Assembly: GCA_046290465.1 (NCBI GenBank) | Contig: JBKAGP010000001.1 | Coordinates: 3,072,001-3,136,000 of the forward strand | Reading direction: 5' to 3' | Source: Planctomycetota bacterium | Lineage (GTDB): Bacteria; Planctomycetota; UBA1135; UBA2386 | DNA: 64,000 bases | In this document: positions 9,168 to 62,876 of the stretch, piece by piece | Layout: every line of letters starts with the position of its first letter | Numbering within the stretch: the stretch's first letter is position 1 | Made by a program: the position numbers and the translations under genes | The notes under the pieces: model-generated | Told to the model about the DNA's origin: nothing | The model's database searches: none | The model's input: only the letters and a program-made list of their open reading frames with translations

Positions 9168-10141
9168 TGCTGGAGTCCGATCGTCTGGCCGACGCCGAGG
9201 GCCTCGGCACGGTCGATGGCTGCGCGCGCGGCGAACAGGTCCTGCACCGCGTGGCCGACCGACTTGAACACGGTCACGTCGTGCCCATCGGCACGGCCGA
9301 GGGCCGGCTCGGCGAGCAGCGCGCCGAGCTCGACCCAGTCCTCGGCGCGCGTGATGCCGGCATCGCGGGCGGCGACCAGCTCGCCTGCCTCGTGCAGCGC
9401 CGACGCGCGCAGGTCGACGACGATCCGCCCCGCCCGCCGGATCGTGTGCTCGTCGAGCTCGCGCATCGCCAGGCGGAAGCTGCCGACCCCGTTGACGTGC
9501 GCGCCGCGCAGCAGGCGCCGGCCGTCGAGCACCGGCGTCGTCGAGCTGGTCGCGACGCTGACGACGTCGGCGCCGTCGATCACCTCGTCGCTGGACGCGG
9601 CCGCCACGACGTCCGCATCGACCCGTTGCCGCGCCGCCGCGACGAACGTCTCGAGCCGCTCGCGGTCGCGCGCGAACACCCGGACCTGCTGCAGCGGCCG
9701 CGCGCACACCATCGCCAGCAACTGCGTCCAGGCCTGGCCACCGGCGCCCAGCACGGCGCCGACGCTGGCATCCGCGTCGGCGAGCAGCTCGGTCGCGAGG
9801 CCGGCGACCGCACCGGTGCGAATCGCGGTCAGGGCGCCGCCGTCACAGATCCCGACCGTGTGGCCGGTGTCGGGATCGATGACGGTCACCACCCCCGTCG
9901 TCGTCGTCAGCCCGCGAGCGGCGTTGGCGGGGAAGATGTTGACGACCTTGGCGATGCGGCCCCCGGCCCCGCTGGCCGCCATCAGCAGCGTGGTGCGATC
10001 GGCCTCGACGAGGTGCACGCGCGGCGGCGCGATCACCGTGCCGGCGGCCAGCGCCGCGAACGCGTCGCGCATCGCGTCGATGGCGGCGCGCATCGGCAGC
10101 GCCGTGTCCAGGTCGTCGGCCGTCAGGACTCGCGTTCGCAC
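9164..10141 (-). CDS. Ornithine cyclodeaminase/mu-crystallin family (probable delta1-pyrroline-2-carboxylate reductase)
   Basis: LTAIRTGA, GAGGQA, HVNGVGS, VFKSVGHAVQD. Stop overlaps the start of the racemase-family gene. Confidence 0.88.
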   Translation of the reverse strand: MRTRVLTADDLDTALPMRAAIDAMRDAFAALAAGTVIAPPRVHLVEADRTTLLMAASGAGGRIAKVVNIFPANAARGLTTTTGVVTVIDPDTGHTVGICDGGALTAIRTGAVAGLATELLADADASVGAVLGAGGQAWTQLLAMVCARPLQQVRVFARDRERLETFVAAARQRVDADVVAAASSDEVIDGADVVSVATSSTTPVLDGRRLLRGAHVNGVGSFRLAMRELDEHTIRRAGRIVVDLRASALHEAGELVAARDAGITRAEDWVELGALLAEPALGRADGHDVTVFKSVGHAVQDLFAARAAIDRAEALGVGQTIGLQQ

Positions 10142-10262
10142 GCTGCCAGCCTACGTTGCACGGAGGCGCGCACCAGCCCGCCGGCCATTCATTCGCAGTG
10201 CTTAACGATCCAGACAGAACGATTCGCACCACATTTCCAGCCGGAACCCGATAGTTGGCGAC

Positions 10263-10904
10263 ATGGAGACCACTGCCACCAGGATCCCGCTCGCCGCCAA
10301 GCTCGGCTTCAGCGCGTTCATGGCCGTGCTCGTGCCGACCTACTGGGTCAACTACGGGCCGACCAACTTCCTCTACTTCTGCGACGTCGCGCTGTTCTTG
10401 ACCCTGGTCGGCATGTGGACCGAGAAGGCGCTGCCGATCGGGATGGCTGCGGTCGGCATCGTGCTGCCGCAGATGCTGTGGGTCCTCGACTTCGTCTGCG
10501 AACTGTTCGGCGTGCCGCTGGTCGGCATGACCGCCTACATGTTCGAAGAGCAGAACCCGCTGTTCAATCGCAGCCTGTCGCTGTTCCACGGCTGGCTGCC
10601 GTTCCTGCTGCTGTGGCTGGTGCGCAGGACCGGCTACGACCGCCGATCGCTGCTGGCGTGGACCGCGACGGCCTGGGTGCTGATCGTGATCTGCTACCTG
10701 TGGATGCCGCCGCCGCCGGAGCCCGGCGCGATCGTCGATCCCAACCTGCCCGTCAACATCAACTACGTCTTCGGGCCGGATGGGCGCCAGACGTGGATGC
10801 CGGAGCTCGCGTGGCTCGCGGTCTGGCTGTTGGCGCAGCCACTGGTGCTGGCCGGGCCGACGCACCTGTTGTTGCGTCGGCTGGTGCGCGCGCCAGCGGA
10901 ATGA
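10263..10904 (+). CDS. Integral membrane protein of unknown function
   Basis: Several TM helices; YGPTNFLYFCD, LSLFHGWLP and NINYVFG segments look conserved. Confidence 0.75.
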   Translation: METTATRIPLAAKLGFSAFMAVLVPTYWVNYGPTNFLYFCDVALFLTLVGMWTEKALPIGMAAVGIVLPQMLWVLDFVCELFGVPLVGMTAYMFEEQNPLFNRSLSLFHGWLPFLLLWLVRRTGYDRRSLLAWTATAWVLIVICYLWMPPPPEPGAIVDPNLPVNINYVFGPDGRQTWMPELAWLAVWLLAQPLVLAGPTHLLLRRLVRAPAE

Positions 10905-10937
10905 GCGGCGCGCTGGCGCGACTGCAAGCGGTCTGGA

Positions 10938-11276
10938 CTACCAGCGGTCGCCGCGACCGCCGCCGCCACCACCGCCGTAGCCACCACGGCCACCGCCGCC
11001 ACCGCCACCGCCACCGCTGCGCGGACGACGCTCTTCGGCTTCGTTGACGCGCAGGCTGCGGCCGTCGATGTCCTGGCCGTCCATGGCCTGGATCGCGTTC
11101 TGCGCTTCCTCGTCCGAGTTCATCTCGACGAAGCCGAAGCCGCGCGAGCGGCCGGTCTCACGATCGTTGAGGATCGAGACGCTCTTCGGCGTGAAGCCGG
11201 CCTGCTCGAAGGCACCCTGCAGGATGTCTTCGGTGGTGTTCCAAGAAAGGTTTCCGACGAACAAACGAGTTCCCAT
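10938..11276 (-). CDS. RRM-domain RNA-binding protein with Gly-rich tail
   Basis: RNP2 LFVGNL, RNP1 RGFGFVEM, C-terminal GGGGRGGYGG. Confidence 0.95.
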   Translation of the reverse strand: MGTRLFVGNLSWNTTEDILQGAFEQAGFTPKSVSILNDRETGRSRGFGFVEMNSDEEAQNAIQAMDGQDIDGRSLRVNEAEERRPRSGGGGGGGGGRGGYGGGGGGGRGDRW

Positions 11277-56396: not shown

Positions 56397-57257
56397 TCAG
56401 GCAGTCGGGAGGAGCGTGGTCAGGAAGTCGGCGAAGCGCTGGGGGGCGCCGTCGCCATGGAGCACGAACAGTTCGGGTTCGATCAGTTCGACCTCCATCA
56501 GGATGGCGCCGCGCTCGGTCGGCACCAGGTCGATGCGCGCGTAGTCGGCGGGCTCGGGCAGCAGCCGCAGCACGTCGCGCGCCACCTGCAGGTGATCGGC
56601 GGTCGGTTCGAACGGGGCGGTCGTACCGCCGTGCTCGGCGTGGATCAGGATCGAGCCCTGCCTGGCGCGCTTGATGGCGGCGTGGGAGAACGTGTCGCCG
56701 ACGAACGTCAGCGATGCCTCGCCGACCGTGCGGATCTCCGGCACCAGCGGCTGCACCAGGCCGTCGCAGCCGAGCCTGCCCGCCGCGGCGGCGAGGCCGG
56801 CGGGATCGTCGCGGCGCACGATCGACAGCCCGCTGGCGCCGGCGCCGAACACCGGCTTGACGACCGCCTCGTCGAGGCCGAGCTCGGCCATCGCCGCGTC
56901 GATCTGCTCGGCAGCGGGCGACACCAGCCGCGTCGGTGCGAGCGGCGCGCCGCGCTCGGCGAGATCGAGCAGGTAGGTCTTGCGCGCGTTCCATCGCATC
57001 AGCGACGGCCGGTTGACCACGCGCGCCGCGACGCCCTCGAGTCGATCGAGCCACGCCAGGAACGCGTCGGGCGTCTGCGCGTAGTCCCAGGTCGAACGCA
57101 CCGCGACCAGGTCGCACTGTTCGAACGGCGCGAACGGCCCGTTCCACGGCGCCGCCACCACCTCGACGCCCGACGCCTCGATCGCCGCCGCGATCGGCGC
57201 GTCGTCCGGCTGCAGCGCCGGCATCTCGAGGCAGGTCGCGAACGCGATTCTGGTCAT
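56397..57257 (-). CDS. ATP-grasp ligase (RimK/glutathione synthetase-like)
   Basis: RSTWDY, WNARKTYL, VVKPVFGAGA, YARIDLV, MEVELIEP. Confidence 0.88.
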   Translation of the reverse strand: MTRIAFATCLEMPALQPDDAPIAAAIEASGVEVVAAPWNGPFAPFEQCDLVAVRSTWDYAQTPDAFLAWLDRLEGVAARVVNRPSLMRWNARKTYLLDLAERGAPLAPTRLVSPAAEQIDAAMAELGLDEAVVKPVFGAGASGLSIVRRDDPAGLAAAAGRLGCDGLVQPLVPEIRTVGEASLTFVGDTFSHAAIKRARQGSILIHAEHGGTTAPFEPTADHLQVARDVLRLLPEPADYARIDLVPTERGAILMEVELIEPELFVLHGDGAPQRFADFLTTLLPTA

Positions 57258-57266
57258 GCTCGCAGG

Positions 57267-57881
57267 CTACCGCACGCCGTGGTAGCGCAGCACGTAGGCA
57301 GGCGGCACGTTGCGCAGCACCGGCCCGATGCGCTCGAAGCCCTCGAAGTGCTCCTCCATGCGCGCGCGGAACCGCCGCGCGGCCTTCATCCGGTAGGCGT
57401 GCACGTACTGGAACGTGCGGAAGTCGCAGTCGCTGTCGCGCAACGCCCAGACCAGTCCGTCGACGACCGAGTCCTGCACCGGCGCCGGCAGGCTCGCGAA
57501 CGGCAGGCCCGAGATGATGCGCGCCGGCCGCGGCAGGTCGCGTTCGGCGAGGATCTGCTGCACGTCGCCGGCCGACCCACAGTGGAACTGCATGCCGGGG
57601 AAGCGCGCCGCCAGCAGGTCACAGAACGACGCCTCGAGCTCGATGCCGAGGTAGCGCGCGCCGAACGGCAGCCGTTCGTGGATGACCGACGTCATCGGGC
57701 CGGTGCCGGGGCCGTATTCGACGACGAGGTCGCCGTCCCCGAGCTGCGACAGGTCGCCGACCAACGCGCGCGACAGGAATCGCGAACTCGGCAGCACCGC
57801 GCCGACCGAGGTCGGGTTCTTCAGGAAGTTGCCGAAGAAGCCGAGCCCGTCGCGCACCGGGCGCTTCTTCGGTGCATCCAT
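57267..57881 (-). CDS. Second PmtA/OlsG-like lipid N-methyltransferase
   Basis: FLKNPTSVGAVLPSS, VVEYGPGTG, ISGLPF, FQY, RNVPPAYV. Confidence 0.85.
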   Translation of the reverse strand: MDAPKKRPVRDGLGFFGNFLKNPTSVGAVLPSSRFLSRALVGDLSQLGDGDLVVEYGPGTGPMTSVIHERLPFGARYLGIELEASFCDLLAARFPGMQFHCGSAGDVQQILAERDLPRPARIISGLPFASLPAPVQDSVVDGLVWALRDSDCDFRTFQYVHAYRMKAARRFRARMEEHFEGFERIGPVLRNVPPAYVLRYHGVR

Positions 57882-57935
57882 CGACGGTTCGATCTCTCGC
57901 GAAGGGTCCAAGCGCACCAGCGTGCCGCCTCCGGC

Positions 57936-58235
57936 TCAGTCCGTCAACGCGTCGCCGACGACCGCGACCTTGCCGGCGCGCACCCGCGCGCAGCAGAGCA
58001 GTCGGCAGTCGTCGCCGACGCCCATGCGATCGAGGGTGCCGCGCTCGTCCTCACCGGCCGGCTCGAGCGCGTCGTCGGCCGCGTCGACGCGGTGCGCGTC
58101 CGTGCCGCACATGCCGCGCGTGCAGCCGGTCATGATCTCGACGCCGGCCATCTCGGCGGCGGCGAGCAACGTGGTGCCGGGCTCCACGAACACGGTCTTG
58201 TCGGCTTCGGCGAAGTGCACCTCGACGAGGTTCAT
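57936..58235 (-). CDS. 2Fe-2S ferredoxin-like protein (C-x4-C-x2-D variant)
   Basis: GTTLLAAA..GVEIMTGCTRGMCGTD...CRLLCCARV. Confidence 0.8.
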   Translation of the reverse strand: MNLVEVHFAEADKTVFVEPGTTLLAAAEMAGVEIMTGCTRGMCGTDAHRVDAADDALEPAGEDERGTLDRMGVGDDCRLLCCARVRAGKVAVVGDALTD

Positions 58236-58317
58236 GCCCCAAGGGCTTACGGTCCGCGCCGCCGGGATCAAGCTCGGACTGGCGCAGCAGCGGCCGAGCC
58301 CCCAACATCGCGCCACC

Positions 58318-60147
58318 ATGCAGCTCGAGTTCCTCGACTGGGCGATCATCGCCGGCTACTTCGCCGTTGCCCTCGGCATCGGCGTGTTCTTCTACCGCCG
58401 CGCCGGCTCGAGCTTCGTCGAGTACTTCGCGTCGGGCCGCAGCCTGCCGTGGTGGATCGCCGGCACGTCGATGGTCGCAACCACGTTCGCGGCCGACACC
58501 CCGCTCGCGGTGACCGGCCTGATCGCCAAGCACGGCCTGGCCGGCAACTGGTTCTGGTGGGCGTGGGCGTTCGGCGGGATGTTGACCGTGTTCGTGTTCG
58601 CGCGGCTGTGGCGGCGCGCCGAGGTGCTGACCGACGTCGAACTGATCGAGCTGCGCTACTCCGGCCCCGCCGCGGCGTTCCTGCGCGGGTTCCGCGGCTT
58701 CTACATCGCGGTCGTGATGAACTCGATCGTGATCGGCTGGGTGACCAAGGCGATGGCGCAGGTGCTGCAGCAGACGGTGCTGTTCGACGAGGCGGCGACC
58801 GCGGACCCCGGCGACGGCACCGGCCTGATGCTGATCGCGATCATGCTCGCGATCACCGGCGTCTACTCGATCCTCTCCGGCCTGTGGGGCGTCGCGATCA
58901 CCGACATGATCCAGTTCGTGCTGGCGATGGGCGGCTGCATCGGCCTCGCCGTCGTCGCGATCTCGCACCTCGGCGGCGTCGACGAACTGCAGGTACAGCT
59001 CGCCAAGGTCTACGAAGGCGACGGCGATCCGCTCGCGTTCCTGCCCGACTTCGGCGAGGGCGGCGCCGCGATTCCGCTCGGCATCTTCCTGGTGCTGGTG
59101 TTGTCGCAGTGGTGGGCGACCTGGTATCCGGGCTCCGAGCCCGGCGGCGGCGGCTACATCGTGCAGCGCATGGCCTCGTGCAAGGACGAGGGCCACGCCG
59201 TCAAGGCGACGCTGTTCTTCCAGCTGGCGCACTACTGCCTGCGGCCGTGGCCGTGGATCCTGGTCGCGTTCGTCGCGATCGCGCTGCACCCGGAGCTGCG
59301 CGCCGAAGGCGCCGACGCCGGCGCCGGCTACCCGATGATGATCCGCGAACTGGCCCCCACCGGCCTGCGCGGCCTGCTGCTGGTGACGTTCGCGGCGGCG
59401 TTCATGTCGACGATCTCGACGCAGATGAACTGGGGCGCCAGCTACCTGGTCAACGACGTCTACAAGCGCTTCGTCGCGCCGGACGCCAGCGACCGACAGC
59501 TGATGGTCGCCTCGCGCATCGCCTCGGGCATCGTGCTGCTGCTCGGCGGCGGCGTCGCGTGGTGGATGCTGACCTACGGCATCTCGGTCGACCAGGCGTG
59601 GGCGTTCCTGGCGGCGCTCGGCGCCGGCGTCGGCGCGGTGTTCATCCTGCGCTGGTTCTGGTGGCGCATCAACGTCTGGAGCGAGATCACCGCGATGGTC
59701 GGCTCGCTGCTGCTGTTCGCGATCTTCACGTGGCTGCAGGCGACGCCCGACGGCGCGAGCGAGGCCCGCTGGCCGGCGCTGGCGGCGCTCGCCGACGAGT
59801 ATCGCGCGCTGATCGTCGCCAGCGGCACGCTGGTGCTGTGGCTGCTCGCCACGCTGCTGACCAGGCCGACCGAACCGGAGCACCTGACGGCCTTCTACCG
59901 CAAGGTCCGCCCCGACGGCCCCGGCTGGGGACCGATCGCGGCACGCGCGCCCGAGGTCCGGCCGGACGGCGCGCTCGGCCGCGGCGTGCTCTGCGCCGTG
60001 ATCGGCACCGCGATCGTCTGGCTGTCGCTGCCCGGCGTCGGCGCGCTGATCTTCGGCGACTACCTGCTGGGCGTCACGCTGCTCGCGGCGGCCTTGGCGT
60101 GTGGCTTCGTGCTGCTCAAGCTCGCGCCGCGCAACCTCGCGGCGTGA
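58318..60147 (+). CDS. Sodium:solute symporter family protein
   Basis: EYFASGRSLPWW, SMVATTFAADTPL, GGGGYIVQRM, AAFMSTIST. Confidence 0.92.
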   Translation: MQLEFLDWAIIAGYFAVALGIGVFFYRRAGSSFVEYFASGRSLPWWIAGTSMVATTFAADTPLAVTGLIAKHGLAGNWFWWAWAFGGMLTVFVFARLWRRAEVLTDVELIELRYSGPAAAFLRGFRGFYIAVVMNSIVIGWVTKAMAQVLQQTVLFDEAATADPGDGTGLMLIAIMLAITGVYSILSGLWGVAITDMIQFVLAMGGCIGLAVVAISHLGGVDELQVQLAKVYEGDGDPLAFLPDFGEGGAAIPLGIFLVLVLSQWWATWYPGSEPGGGGYIVQRMASCKDEGHAVKATLFFQLAHYCLRPWPWILVAFVAIALHPELRAEGADAGAGYPMMIRELAPTGLRGLLLVTFAAAFMSTISTQMNWGASYLVNDVYKRFVAPDASDRQLMVASRIASGIVLLLGGGVAWWMLTYGISVDQAWAFLAALGAGVGAVFILRWFWWRINVWSEITAMVGSLLLFAIFTWLQATPDGASEARWPALAALADEYRALIVASGTLVLWLLATLLTRPTEPEHLTAFYRKVRPDGPGWGPIAARAPEVRPDGALGRGVLCAVIGTAIVWLSLPGVGALIFGDYLLGVTLLAAALACGFVLLKLAPRNLAA

Positions 60148-61362
60148 TCACCTGCCCACAGCGGGCTTGCGGTAGCGCGTGATCGCAAACCCGATCGGCG
60201 CCGGGCCGGGGTCGTTGCCGCGCTGGTTGAAGCGGTGCGCGCCCTTCCGGGAGCCGAGCGCGACCAGCTCGAAGCGGACCAGATCGCGCTTGCGGTCGTC
60301 GTAGAGGCCCTCGCCGTACAGCTGCGCAGTGATCGACCGCTCGCCGTCGTCCATCGCCACCTCGCCCCCGTAGACGACCGTCGTCATGCCCTTCTGGCTG
60401 GGGCCGCGGCGCATCGTCAGCGAAGCCTTGCGCACGTGCTCGGCCTTCCACGTCGAGGCCTGGCCGCGCACGTTGTCGATCAGCATCTCACGCGCGAGCC
60501 TGGTCACGAACTTGGCGTCGACCGGTTGCGGCTTCGACGACTTCGCCGGCACCAGCGCGCGCCAGTCGTCGACGGCCTGCCAGTTCTCGTTCCACGCCCA
60601 CTTGGTGAACGCCATCCACCCGGCCTTCAGGTGCGTGTCCTTGTCGAACCGGCACTGCTCGCCCTCGCCGCGCGGCAGGTCGCGCGAGTGCACGCGCAGC
60701 ACGAACTCCTGGCCGTCGAGCCGCGCCGGCAGCGTCGTGACGACCTTGGGCACCGGCTCGTTGGCGTAGCCCTTGTCCTTGCGCAGCTTCTCCCAACGCT
60801 CGAGCGCGCGCTCGAGGCGCTCGACGATGTCGTCGGGGAAGCCGCTCGCGGCGAACCGTCCCTCGAGATACTCGCCGTCGGGCCCGATCATGTAGAGGCC
60901 CTGCTTGGTGCCCGGATGGTTCCAGTCGCCCTTCGGCATCGCCTCGCCGAAGCGCTTGAAGAACTGGTGCTCCGGCCGGTCCTGCACGCGCTTCAGGTTC
61001 CACTCGTCCTCCGGGTAGAGCATGTAGACCTCGTCGGCGACGGTGACGAAGTTGCGGCTCAGCTCGGCGATCTTCGGGTCGGACCAGACCAACTGTCGGC
61101 CCCGCACACCGTTGTTTCAGGTGCACCCGAGCGGGTGCCCGTTCATCGTCCAGAACAGGATCGGACGGCCGAGCCGACGCGCCTCCTGCACCGCCGGCCA
61201 CAGCGCGTTGCGCCAGCCGATCTCGCGGTAGCTCTCCTCGTGCGCGGCCGGCTGCACGAACGTCAGCCACTCGCGGAAGTTGTCGGCGTCGGGTCGCGGC
61301 GGGTCCTGCGGAGCCAGGAGCGCCAGGAAGGCCAGGCTGGTCGTCAGCATGGCCGCGATCAT
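60148..61362 (-). CDS. Exported thioredoxin-like putative selenoprotein (C-T-U motif, SelN-like active-site region); Sec at TGA 61117-61119
   Basis: ORFs 61117..61569 and 60148..61107 are in the same frame and separated by one TGA. The join reads IGWRNALWPAVQEARRLGRPILFWTMNGHPLGCT-U-NNGVRGRQLVWSDPKIAELSRNFVTVADE. Alternative start at 61350. Confidence 0.8.
61081..61102 (-). promoter_or_regulatory. Putative SECIS hairpin of the C-T-U gene
   Basis: GGGCC-GAC-[AGUUG]-GUC-U-GGUCC. The loop starts 23 nt after the UGA and has G at position 2. Confidence 0.55.
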
Positions 61363-61373
61363 AGCGGCCGCAG

Positions 61374-62249
61374 CTACTGCACGACCTCGAGCAACTCGAC
61401 ATCCAGCTGGTAGATGTCGACGCAGTAGCCGTCGATGTGGGTCTCCTTCACCGAGAGGCGGCCGACCAGCTTGATCGGCTCGAACTGGTAGTCGACGCGG
61501 CGGCCCTCGGCCATCCGGCAGCGCACGATGCCGTGCACGTCGGGCGGCGTGCCGTAGCAGCACGACCACAGCGAGCTGACCAGCAGGAACTCACGCATGT
61601 CCTCGACCTCGTCGAGCGGCAGCATGAAGCCGAGCATCAGCACCTGCAGGCCGTCGAGCGCGCGCACGGCGTCCGGTGCGCCGATGAGACCTTCGGTGTA
61701 CTTCCAGCCGCTCAGTTCGTCGAACGGCAGCACCCGGTCGACCCCGGCGATCTTGCCGTTGGCGATCATCTCCTGCAGCTTCTTCTCGGCCGCCAGCATC
61801 GCCTCCGCAGAACGCATCGCAGCGAGGTCGGCCGGATCGGTACCCTTGGGCAGTTCGCGGCCGTCGGGGTTGTTGCCGCCGGGATTGCTGCCGCCAGGAT
61901 CACCGCCGGCCGGCCGCAGCGGCCCGTCGACGCCGTTCGGCCCACCGACACCATCCGGCGCCTGCGCGACCTCGCGATCACCTGGCGGCGCATCGCCACC
62001 GGAGTCGGCGCGGTTCAGCCGCCACGCCAGCACCGTGACCCCGAGGCCGAGCAGCAGCACCGCGGCGACCAGCATCCGGTAGGCGCTGGCCGACGACCCG
62101 GTGGGCGTCGCCCGCTCCGGCCCGGCCGCGACGCGGGCCAGGATCCGCTCGGCGCGATCCGGAGGCGACGCGCGCTCGGCGAGTTCGTCGAAGGCGTGGT
62201 CGAAGTGTCGCTGCTCGACCGACTCTGGCTCGTGCTGCTGATCCGTCAT
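61374..62249 (-). CDS. Putative anti-sigma factor: cytoplasmic N-region, TM, extracytoplasmic DUF3299 domain
   Basis: ATGA-coupled to the ECF sigma gene; single TM; C-terminal LDG..V.MLGFMLPLD...EFLLV...SCCYGTPP DUF3299 signature. Confidence 0.75.
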   Translation of the reverse strand: MTDQQHEPESVEQRHFDHAFDELAERASPPDRAERILARVAAGPERATPTGSSASAYRMLVAAVLLLGLGVTVLAWRLNRADSGGDAPPGDREVAQAPDGVGGPNGVDGPLRPAGGDPGGSNPGGNNPDGRELPKGTDPADLAAMRSAEAMLAAEKKLQEMIANGKIAGVDRVLPFDELSGWKYTEGLIGAPDAVRALDGLQVLMLGFMLPLDEVEDMREFLLVSSLWSCCYGTPPDVHGIVRCRMAEGRRVDYQFEPIKLVGRLSVKETHIDGYCVDIYQLDVELLEVVQ

Positions 62250-62815
62250 GACGACTCCTGTTGCATCCTCCGCTGCACGCATTCGCGCAGCGCCTTGCGC
62301 GCGCGCGACAGCAGCGACTTGATCCCGTTGGCGCCGATGCCGAGGCGGCCGGCGACCTCGCTGCACGACGCGCCGTCGAGGTGGTGCCACTGCACCGCAT
62401 CGCGCATGCGACCGTCGAGCCGGTCTACGCAGCGCCGCAGCAGCTCGATCCGTTCGTCCTCGAGCGCGCTGGCGTCGTCCCGCAGGTATTCGTCGACCTC
62501 CTCGAGCCACTGCACGGTCGGCGGCTCGCGCCGGCTGCGGCGCCGCGCGCCGAGCAGCAGGTTGCGGGCGGTGCCGCGCAGGTAGGCGGCGACATCGACG
62601 ATGCGCTCGCCCGACAGCAGCCGTTCGGCCGCGATCACGAACGCATCCTGCATCAGGTCGTCGGCCTCGTGCGGGTCGGCGCCGAGCAGCCGCAGGTAGC
62701 GCCAGACCATGCGCTGGTGCGCCCGCACCAGGGCGGCGAAGTCGGCCATCACGCCGCTCGCGGCCGGGCCGGGCGCGGGGCGCTCGCTGCGTTCGATTGG
62801 CTGCACGGCGGGCAT
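62246..62815 (-). CDS. ECF RNA polymerase sigma factor
   Basis: Region 2 (HQRMVWRYL..ADDLMQDAF..YLRGTARN) and region 4 (LRRCVDRL..EVAGRLG..KSLLSRARKALRECV). Confidence 0.9.
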   Translation of the reverse strand: MPAVQPIERSERPAPGPAASGVMADFAALVRAHQRMVWRYLRLLGADPHEADDLMQDAFVIAAERLLSGERIVDVAAYLRGTARNLLLGARRRSRREPPTVQWLEEVDEYLRDDASALEDERIELLRRCVDRLDGRMRDAVQWHHLDGASCSEVAGRLGIGANGIKSLLSRARKALRECVQRRMQQESS

Positions 62816-62876
62816 CGTCTCCGCTGGTGCCCGCACCCGGGTCCGCGGGTGCAGGATTCTGCAGAAAAGCCGGGCG

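Follow-up and report, generated by a model that had tools for sequence, protein, structure and literature searches.

The locus and its reading frame

The 64,000-nucleotide (nt) stretch of planctomycete DNA analyzed here (assembly GCA_046290465.1, contig JBKAGP010000001.1, positions 3,072,001 to 3,136,000), referred to as the window, carries on its minus strand a gene that is predicted to encode a selenoprotein (Table 1). Translation from position 61362 to position 60148 with TGA read as selenocysteine (Sec, U) gave 404 residues, a terminal TGA, and a single internal TGA, which is codon 82 and is flanked as RPILFWTMNGHPLGCT-U-NNGVRGRQLVWSDPKIAELSRNFV. This result agrees with an earlier note on the same DNA, which had proposed a read-through gene of ~400 amino acids (aa) here and had quoted the same context. 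Under translation table 11, the frame is instead divided: an upstream open reading frame (ORF) stops at the TGA, and a downstream ORF of 319 aa occupies positions 60148 to 61107. The upstream half had also been credited with a signal peptide. Its N terminus, MIAAMLTTSLAFLALLAP, has a best 12-residue Kyte-Doolittle mean of 2.09, and an equivalent hydrophobic stretch of at least 1.8 lies ahead of the conserved domain in 48 of 53 relatives. On the basis of this hydrophobicity, an N-terminal export signal is predicted.

Conservation of the internal TGA

The read-through sequence was searched against 5.8 billion proteins and returned 342 matches. Each of the best 120 spans 69 to 79% of the query, corresponding to the portion after the TGA. 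Within this set, 119 proteins are 281 to 329 aa long and one is 690 aa long; where named, they are hypothetical proteins of Planctomycetota, Fimbriimonadaceae, or Chthonomonas. Gene callers thus split the protein and leave its pieces with uninformative names, as had been anticipated.

The DNA of relatives was then collected from one genome per species; 79 stretches fit a pattern, of which 54 were confirmed, representing 53 distinct loci. In all 53, one frame runs through a TGA at the same alignment column, and the flanks are near invariant, with WTMNGHPLGCT upstream and NNGVRGRQLVWSD downstream. One locus (L058) has a frameshift further downstream. The cultured Saltatorellus ferox Poly30 is among the carriers of the gene (locus L063, NZ_CP036434.1). 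The terminal stops of the 53 loci are mixed (24 TGA, 25 TAG, and 4 TAA), whereas the internal stop is always TGA. A profile search of 401 genomes across the phylum found matches at an E value of ≤1e-10 in 127 genomes, with a maximum of four in each; among the matches listed, 8 contained no stop and all others contained an in-frame TGA. Sixty divergent TGA-bearing relatives were fetched, and every one has exactly one in-frame TGA, located at the same site after GHPLG. The sequence C-T-TGA-N-N-G was also present in 11 of 11 further loci. Because the TGA falls in the same column in 53/53 close and 60/60 divergent relatives, it is not there by chance. An all-against-all library of representatives contained 1192 proteins at an E value of ≤0.001, 307 at ≤1e-10, and 39 at ≤1e-30. 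Judged by sequence, this is a large bacterial selenoprotein family of Planctomycetota (about a third of the sampled genomes) and Armatimonadota.

The genome itself holds a second, divergent copy ~5.6 kb past the end of the window (G000:C1:3141578-3142630, plus strand; profile E value, 3.1e-74). This paralogue (L092, 301-1353) has its own signal peptide and a GHPLGCT-TGA-NNG site. Tandem copies were seen elsewhere as well. On one contig, a Sec form lies ~4 kb from a T-G-D form that has neither Cys nor Sec (G320:C321:5249-6409 and 10118-11275), and at G108:C42:50037-52212 two Sec forms are adjacent.

Selenocysteine decoding machinery

A check of the genome for the sel genes had been recommended in the earlier note, and all were found. 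On its single 6.59-Mb contig, selA (453 bits), selB (354 bits), and selD (352 bits) scored above curated cutoffs, and a tRNA-Sec scored 72.8 bits and was reported by ARAGORN as tRNA-SeC with anticodon tca. The selD gene holds one in-frame TGA, and its read-through sequence, SSAGUAAK, fits the UxxK entry for SelD in a 2026 inventory (PMC13188914). The selD and selA genes are adjacent on the same strand (G000:C1:1309619-1311945; loci L001 and L010). Among the 401 genomes, selA is present in 289, and 122 of the 127 family-positive genomes have it. Of the five family-positive genomes without selA, two have only forms with neither Cys nor TGA, one has a partial match that ends short of the site, one has a weak match that was not listed, and one has a TGA form in a genome that is 67% complete.

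RNA signal downstream of the UGA

Synonymous-codon usage was constrained immediately after the TGA. In the codon alignment of the 53 close loci, the normalized synonymous-codon entropy of conserved codons was 0.447 for codons 83 to 96 and 0.720 elsewhere (one-sided Mann-Whitney P = 5.7e-5). Across 121 sliding windows of ten conserved degenerate codons, the minimum fell at codons 83 to 92, and the eight lowest values all lay within codons 81 to 106.

Covariation was analyzed in 61 sequences, comprising the 60 divergent members and the same-genome paralogue, which align without gaps from the codon before the UGA; hairpin positions are counted from the U of UGA. These sequences share a hairpin in which nt 15 to 21 pair with nt 27 to 33 around a 5-nt loop. 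Standard pairs made up 82.9% of its cells, compared with 34 to 41% (maximum, 40.7%) when the 3' partners were slid by 1 to 3 columns. Compensatory changes occurred at 7 of 7 pairs, and cells changed on both sides numbered 55, compared with 19.2 ± 6.8 after shuffling, with 0 of 500 shuffles reaching the observed value. The clearest covarying pair joins the third position of a Leu codon to that of a Ser/Thr codon and is found as G-C, U-A, and C-G. Apart from the TGA, a single column is invariant in this alignment, a G at loop position 2 (nt 23). Since an invariant Arg codon has this G as its middle base, the RNA and protein constraints on it are inseparable. For 30 of the 60 divergent members, the region after the UGA ranked in the bottom quartile of folding energies within the same gene (binomial P = 2.7e-5). 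The paralogue forms a 5-bp hairpin with loop CGUGU at nt 17 to 31.

For the window gene, the hairpin listed in Table 1 is no more than the best candidate for the selenocysteine insertion sequence (SECIS). For the close subfamily, RNAalifold proposed a 4-bp hairpin (GGUC/GACC) that was paired in 98% of cases but hardly varies, and for that reason it was not relied upon. An Rfam scan of positions 59500 to 62500 at an E value of ≤10 gave three chance-level matches and no SECIS family.

Predicted fold and domains

An AlphaFold2 model built with a 108-row alignment had a predicted local distance difference test (pLDDT) score of 94.5 and a predicted template modeling (pTM) score of 0.91 for the whole protein, and pLDDT exceeded 90 across the TGA junction. 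The model places a strand at residues 68 to 73, ahead of the TGA, and a helix at residues 83 to 91, immediately after it, and suggests two rigidly packed domains. The first was assigned to the thioredoxin fold by VIA-align. A Foldseek search against the PDB returned nothing at an E value of ≤0.001, with thioredoxin-type domains in its top rows. In the profile alignments to 3f9u and 3ira, the CVNC or CHWC motif has its first Cys opposite Sec82 and its second opposite Gly85, with the GHPLG stretch inserted ahead of the motif. The window protein contains no CxxC, its motif being C-T-U-N-N-G. As modeled, the first domain is a thioredoxin fold of the DsbD-gamma/Thioredoxin_7 type with Sec82 at the N terminus of helix alpha-1. 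Sec82 occupies the position of the first, nucleophilic Cys of CxxC, and Gly85 replaces the usual second Cys. The model and the alignments to 3f9u and 3ira therefore bear out the proposal that Sec lies at a thioredoxin active-site position with a helix directly after the TGA. Sequence-based scans with the protein added two matches that were judged spurious, a repeat match in the PDB (E value, 0.95) and a lone NCBIfam match at an E value of ≤1, to S25e (E value, 0.2).

The second domain is beta-barrel-like and belongs to no described family. The four motifs given for it in Table 1 are the most conserved of the family and are kept in members that lack Cys or Sec. An extra C-terminal domain had been expected, and one is present, although it measures ~200 aa and not ~250 aa.

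The frame and the TGA are conserved (53/53 and 60/60), and a single thioredoxin fold spans the TGA. The claim of the earlier note that the two halves form one protein therefore stands. None of the outcomes that the note had named as refuting was observed: the frame is continuous in the relatives, no sense codon occupies the column among the 53 close ones, and the Sec machinery is present.

Active-site motifs and cysteine homologues

Among the 60 divergent relatives, the motif is C-x-U in 51 (CTU in 43, CVU in 6, CGU in 1, and CSU in 1), C-U in 2, and U-C in 1. In the window protein, Cys80 is the likely partner of Sec82, giving C-T-U. The rare variants, in L142, L148, and L149, have the Cys directly before Sec (N-C-U and V-C-U) or directly after it (U-C); the N-C-U/V-C-U type resembles the C-U arrangement of thioredoxin reductase and selenoprotein N (SELENON).

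Homologues with Cys in place of Sec were also found. In 17 distant full-length homologues, the Sec column holds Cys in 6 (CTC in two, CNC in one, and xxC in three) and other residues in 11. Six of the 8 stop-free matches listed in the phylum search reach the site, where 2 have Cys (QAC and CNC) and 4 have lost both residues. The forms with Cys at the Sec position include loci L087 and L089 and proteins P0158 and P0173; the 53 close relatives yielded none. Selenoprotein families usually show such a mixture, with Sec, Cys, or neither at the site.

The machinery, the Cys homologues, the SECIS covariation of the wider family, and the synonymous constraint all point to Sec as the residue inserted at codon 82, as the earlier note had argued. 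This assignment is made from sequence evidence with high confidence.

Genomic neighborhood and domain fusions

The coordinates of the gene, its parts, and its upstream neighbors are collected in Table 1.

Table 1. Features of the predicted selenoprotein locus in the window
Feature	Positions	Strand	Remarks
Whole predicted selenoprotein gene, 404 codons plus terminal TGA (60148-60150)	60148..61362	minus	Frame kept in 53/53 loci
Predicted selenocysteine codon 82 (TGA)	61117..61119	minus	Conserved among relatives; aligned with first Cys of CxxC in 3f9u and 3ira
Cys80 codon, candidate resolving cysteine of C-x-U	61123..61125	minus	Cys at -2 in 53/53 close and 51/60 divergent relatives
Putative signal peptide, residues 1 to ~18 (MIAAMLTTSLAFLALLAP), putative cleavage site	61309..61362	minus	Hydrophobicity; low pLDDT for residues 1-20
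Best candidate SECIS hairpin, nt 18-25/31-39, bulged U34, loop AGUUG	61081..61102	minus	8 bp; entropy minimum at codons 83-92
Predicted thioredoxin-fold domain, residues ~29-197	60772..61278	minus	
Predicted C-terminal beta-barrel-like domain, residues 205-404	60151..60750	minus	Motifs RDLPR, WAWNENW, DNVRGQ, FNQR..D.GPAP
Gene with DUF3299 C-terminal domain (PF11736, E value 5.8e-10)	61374..62249	minus	Upstream neighbor; stop 11 nt before selenoprotein ATG
Extracytoplasmic function (ECF)-type sigma-70 factor gene (Sigma70_r2, Sigma70_r4_2)	62246..62836	minus	Stop overlaps DUF3299 gene start

The DUF3299-domain gene possibly encodes an anti-sigma-like membrane protein. On the other side, a sodium:solute symporter gene on the plus strand ends at position 60147, so that it and the selenoprotein gene are convergent and back to back; both terminate in the palindrome TGATCA (positions 60145 to 60150) without a spacer. 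A 1241-aa ORF at positions 56457 to 60182 on the plus strand is a high-GC shadow frame over the symporter gene and not a gene, and the window contains many long shadow ORFs of this kind.

Four neighbors in the window were compared by tblastn with the flanks of the 53 loci (up to 3 kb per side). Relatives of the sigma factor and DUF3299 genes were found at 1 of 53 loci (L026), those of the ParA-like gene at 5, and those of the SSF transporter at none. All-against-all clustering of the flank ORFs gave no cluster present at more than 5 loci besides the gene itself and ORFs overlapping it.

The whole two-domain module was found in other organisms fused behind Ser/Thr kinase domains (5 proteins), FecR (3 proteins), and a SecDF head domain (1 protein). 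In these proteins (P0158, P0167, P0168, P0198, P0207, P0259, P0263, P0264, and P0173), the module is C terminal and presumably extracytoplasmic. Most of them no longer have the Cys/Sec motif. At the active site, one kinase fusion has CTC, two fusions keep the first Cys only, and one kinase fusion and all three FecR fusions have neither residue. In a different arrangement, at L024 (3199-5365; P0020, 690 aa), the frame after the Sec codon continues for 721 codons into a beta-lactamase-family domain (PF00144; E value, 1.1e-28). This run-on is either a natural fusion or the result of a lost stop.

Proposed mechanism and alternative explanations

The reading that we consider very probable is that the locus produces one exported protein of ~404 residues in which the UGA at codon 82 is read as Sec by SelA, SelB, SelD, and tRNA-Sec and in which a thioredoxin fold and a beta-barrel-like domain would together serve a redox mechanism. 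Our confidence that the protein is a redox enzyme is moderate, and our confidence in the identity of its substrate is low; we infer its export, its catalytic chemistry, and the roles of Cys80 and the C-terminal domain. The protein would be a redox enzyme that acts in the periplasm or elsewhere outside the cytoplasm. Its Sec82, as the selenolate, would attack an oxidized substrate, which could be a disulfide, a sulfenic acid, a peroxide-type oxidant, or another electrophile, while the beta-barrel domain would hold or select that substrate. Cys80 could then resolve the intermediate as an intramolecular selenenylsulfide, and reduction of the selenenylsulfide by an external reductant would restore the enzyme. 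The Sec-only variants (6 of 60) may fit a peroxidase-like or externally resolved cycle equally well.

Several observations weigh against parts of this reading. Concerning the RNA signal, the nucleotide conservation after the TGA must partly stem from the conserved peptide NNGVRGRQLVWSD. The G-loop hairpin described in the earlier note is present, and its loop AGUUG starts 23 nt after the UGA, but no excess stability accompanies it, since the 76-nt fold of the region is no more stable than shuffled sequences (z = -0.09). In the 53 sequences of the subfamily, covariation does not support the 18-25/31-39 hairpin, which is paired in 70% of cells and shows compensatory changes at one pair; all eight pairs are standard in only a minority, and the two weakest are standard in 8/53 and 10/53. 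The same nucleotides fold into two other adjacent hairpins in most close relatives, and for this reason the SECIS of the window subfamily is given as a candidate. Concerning the fold, the family profile matched PDB sequences weakly (3f9u, E value 0.16; 3ira, E value 1). The window protein gave 0 Pfam matches at an E value of ≤1, with no significant thioredoxin model, and the Thioredoxin_7 model (PF13899) matched weakly in 16 of 108 family members (best E value, 0.01). Concerning the chemistry, Sec occurs without a Cys within two residues in 6 of the 60 divergent relatives (one of these has Cys at -4), so that Cys80 may be dispensable. Many family members, the FecR fusions included, have neither Cys nor Sec, which indicates that the scaffold also works without redox chemistry. 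Lastly, no conserved neighbor pointing to a substrate or reductant was found in the flanks (≤3 kb) of the 53 loci.

Other explanations of the internal TGA were considered. A nonsense mutation, pseudogene lesion, or sequencing error in a Cys codon, leaving the gene dead or misassembled, would account for the two ORFs that table 11 yields and for the frameshift in the relative L058. However, the same TGA is present in 53/53, 60/60, and 11/11 independent genomes, amino acid conservation is strong on both sides of it, and TAA or TAG never occurs at the site, although terminal stops use all three. This explanation is already refuted by conservation, and its probability is close to nil. Public annotations would favor two separate genes, a secreted 81-aa peptide with a real stop and an independent ~319-aa protein: they call the downstream piece alone (the best 120 of 342 matches, at 69 to 79% coverage), and other gene calls consist of a short N-terminal piece that stops at residue 81. 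Such an arrangement is exceedingly improbable given that every relative preserves the frame through the TGA and that homologues without the stop are continuous. Moreover, the thioredoxin fold needs strand beta-1 before and helix alpha-1 after the TGA (junction pLDDT, >90), and the downstream piece would be left without a signal peptide. A frame held open would likewise result from any other read-through of the UGA, whether by near-cognate insertion of Trp, Cys, or Arg or through a reassigned code. Yet these genomes use TGA as a stop, since the window gene and 24 of its 53 relatives terminate in it. The Sec machinery is complete, with a canonical Sec codon in selD; homologues have Cys at the column; a covarying hairpin lies at SECIS distance; and the family co-occurs with selA. 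Read-through that inserts a residue other than Sec is thus very improbable.

The main rival concerns function. The protein may be a true selenoprotein that is not a thiol-disulfide or peroxide oxidoreductase, its C-x-U site binding a soft metal or a metalloid (Cu, Hg, As, or Se species), or it may serve as a redox or ligand sensor that feeds the adjacent ECF sigma factor. This would be consistent with the fusion of the two-domain module to five Ser/Thr kinases and three FecR anti-sigma proteins, with the location of the window gene 11 nt downstream of the ECF sigma/DUF3299 pair on the same strand, and with C-terminal Arg, Asp, and Asn motifs that are kept without Cys or Sec, as a ligand-binding role would predict. 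The existence of redox-dead members on kinases and anti-sigma factors likewise suggests that the scaffold itself binds a ligand. However, sigma/DUF3299 relatives lie within 3 kb in only 1 of 53 loci, the FecR fusions have lost the Cys/Sec motif, no metal-binding family of Pfam or NCBIfam was matched, and Sec occupies the place of the catalytic nucleophile in a thioredoxin fold, which usually marks an oxidoreductase. We therefore regard a metal-binding or sensing role as unlikely, and a redox enzyme remains the preferred reading.

Relation to selenoprotein N

The one lead to the SELENON resemblance proposed in the earlier note came from a language-model-based Atlas search with the Cys homologue P0193, in which the first match was a eukaryotic "Selenoprotein N" cluster (460 aa) at 0.89, below the 0.9 line of the tool. 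This cluster shares 183 of 256 features with P0193; the family's planctomycete clusters scored 0.88. In a second Atlas search, of "named" clusters, Thioredoxin_7 and Thioredoxin_2 clusters scored no higher than 0.78; the SELENON cluster has no Pfam family and so fell outside this search. A sequence search of the PDB found no matching chain. According to two papers on SELENON, the protein has an SCUG motif, a thioredoxin domain, and no solved structure. A crystallized bacterial SELENON homologue was considered and rejected: PMC7474598 states that there is no three-dimensional structure and never mentions "bacteria."

The two proteins differ in several respects. SELENON has adjacent C-U (SCUG), whereas the window protein has C-T-U, with adjacent C-U in 2 of 60 relatives. 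SELENON carries a membrane anchor and an EF-hand ahead of its redox domain, whereas the window protein has ~28 residues there and no EF-hand match in Pfam. Sec lies near the N terminus of the window protein, followed by the beta-barrel domain, whereas in SELENON, judging from its residue numbers, it lies near the C terminus. It is a tentative and rather doubtful possibility that the family is a bacterial counterpart of the SELENON redox domain, in which Sec would occupy the same place in the fold, next to a Cys. If so, the origin of the SCUG site would be revealed by the relatives that have C-U, C-x-U, or Sec alone, and the beta-barrel would be a substrate or ligand module that bacteria reused as a sensor of kinases and anti-sigma factors. 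The chemistry of a human myopathy protein would then have a tractable model in a cultivable planctomycete, and interest in the family would extend past microbiology.

Comparison with known families

The family was compared with Table 1 of a 2026 review, which lists 119 prokaryotic selenoprotein families and subfamilies (PMC13188914). No row matched through its Pfam or NCBIfam domain identifier, a few rows with cd or PTHR identifiers being outside the scan. The family is also absent from Pfam and NCBIfam in model scans at an E value of ≤1, and literature searches found no description of it. In the parts of the sources that were accessible, the nine new families of deep-Sep and the planctomycete selenoproteins of Porphyra gave no sign of it. 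An earlier description as "hypothetical protein GOS_A" of the Global Ocean Sampling (GOS) survey was considered and rejected, since, in the portions available, these small proteins are unrelated to the family and four GOS supplements lack three of its motifs. As far as these sources extend, the suspicion that the family is undescribed has held.

The family has broader relevance for annotation and for selenium biochemistry. Selenoproteins are underannotated because gene callers stop at UGA; this family is split into "hypothetical" fragments in public annotations, and a profile from the present alignments would let pipelines join them. Its active site is laid out unusually, in that Sec takes the place of the nucleophile and the partner Cys precedes it (C-x-U). 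On one scaffold, nature offers C-U, U-C, Sec-only, C-x-C, and redox-free variants, a series in which to ask why Sec is used. The scaffold is also the outer domain of kinases and anti-sigma factors, and the identity of its ligand would explain a set of signaling proteins.

The nearest fold is that of the exported thioredoxin domains of the DsbD-gamma, Thioredoxin_7 (PF13899), and Thioredox_DsbH type (PDB 3f9u, 1vrs, 2ju5, 3ira, and 7tkv). Unlike these, the window protein has no CxxC: its nucleophile is Sec, Gly stands in for the second Cys, and the partner Cys precedes Sec by two residues, inside the inserted GHPLG loop. It also carries the attached, conserved 200-residue beta-barrel-like domain. 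The Trx7/PDZ selenoprotein (NF041199) is likewise a secreted bacterial selenoprotein with a Thioredoxin_7-like domain; it is listed in the 2026 inventory (PMC13188914) and was first reported in the GOS survey as "putative secreted serine protease MucD." The sequence just before the GOS_A header, in the available portion of the supplement, is probably a member of that family. However, the Trx7/PDZ selenoprotein has CxxU, with Sec second in the motif, and a PDZ domain, whereas the window protein has the beta-barrel domain and no NF041199 match at an E value of ≤1. Several catalogued C-x-U families share the Cys-Sec spacing of the window protein (PMC13188914) but sit on other domains with their own Pfam or NCBIfam models, none of which match it.

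As in the fdhF-type SECIS of Escherichia coli, the hairpin of the window family lies within the coding sequence, immediately 3' of the UGA. Across the wider family, its apical loop is at nt 22 to 26, with the invariant G at nt 23, and the loop position of the fdhF SECIS matches this loop. The sequence differs from that of fdhF, the invariant G doubles as a base of an Arg codon, and the hairpin of the window subfamily is shifted or different. The protein is thus of a known kind, a thioredoxin-fold bacterial selenoprotein with a SECIS inside its ORF, whereas the family, absent from the catalogues checked, is new and its active-site layout is unusual.

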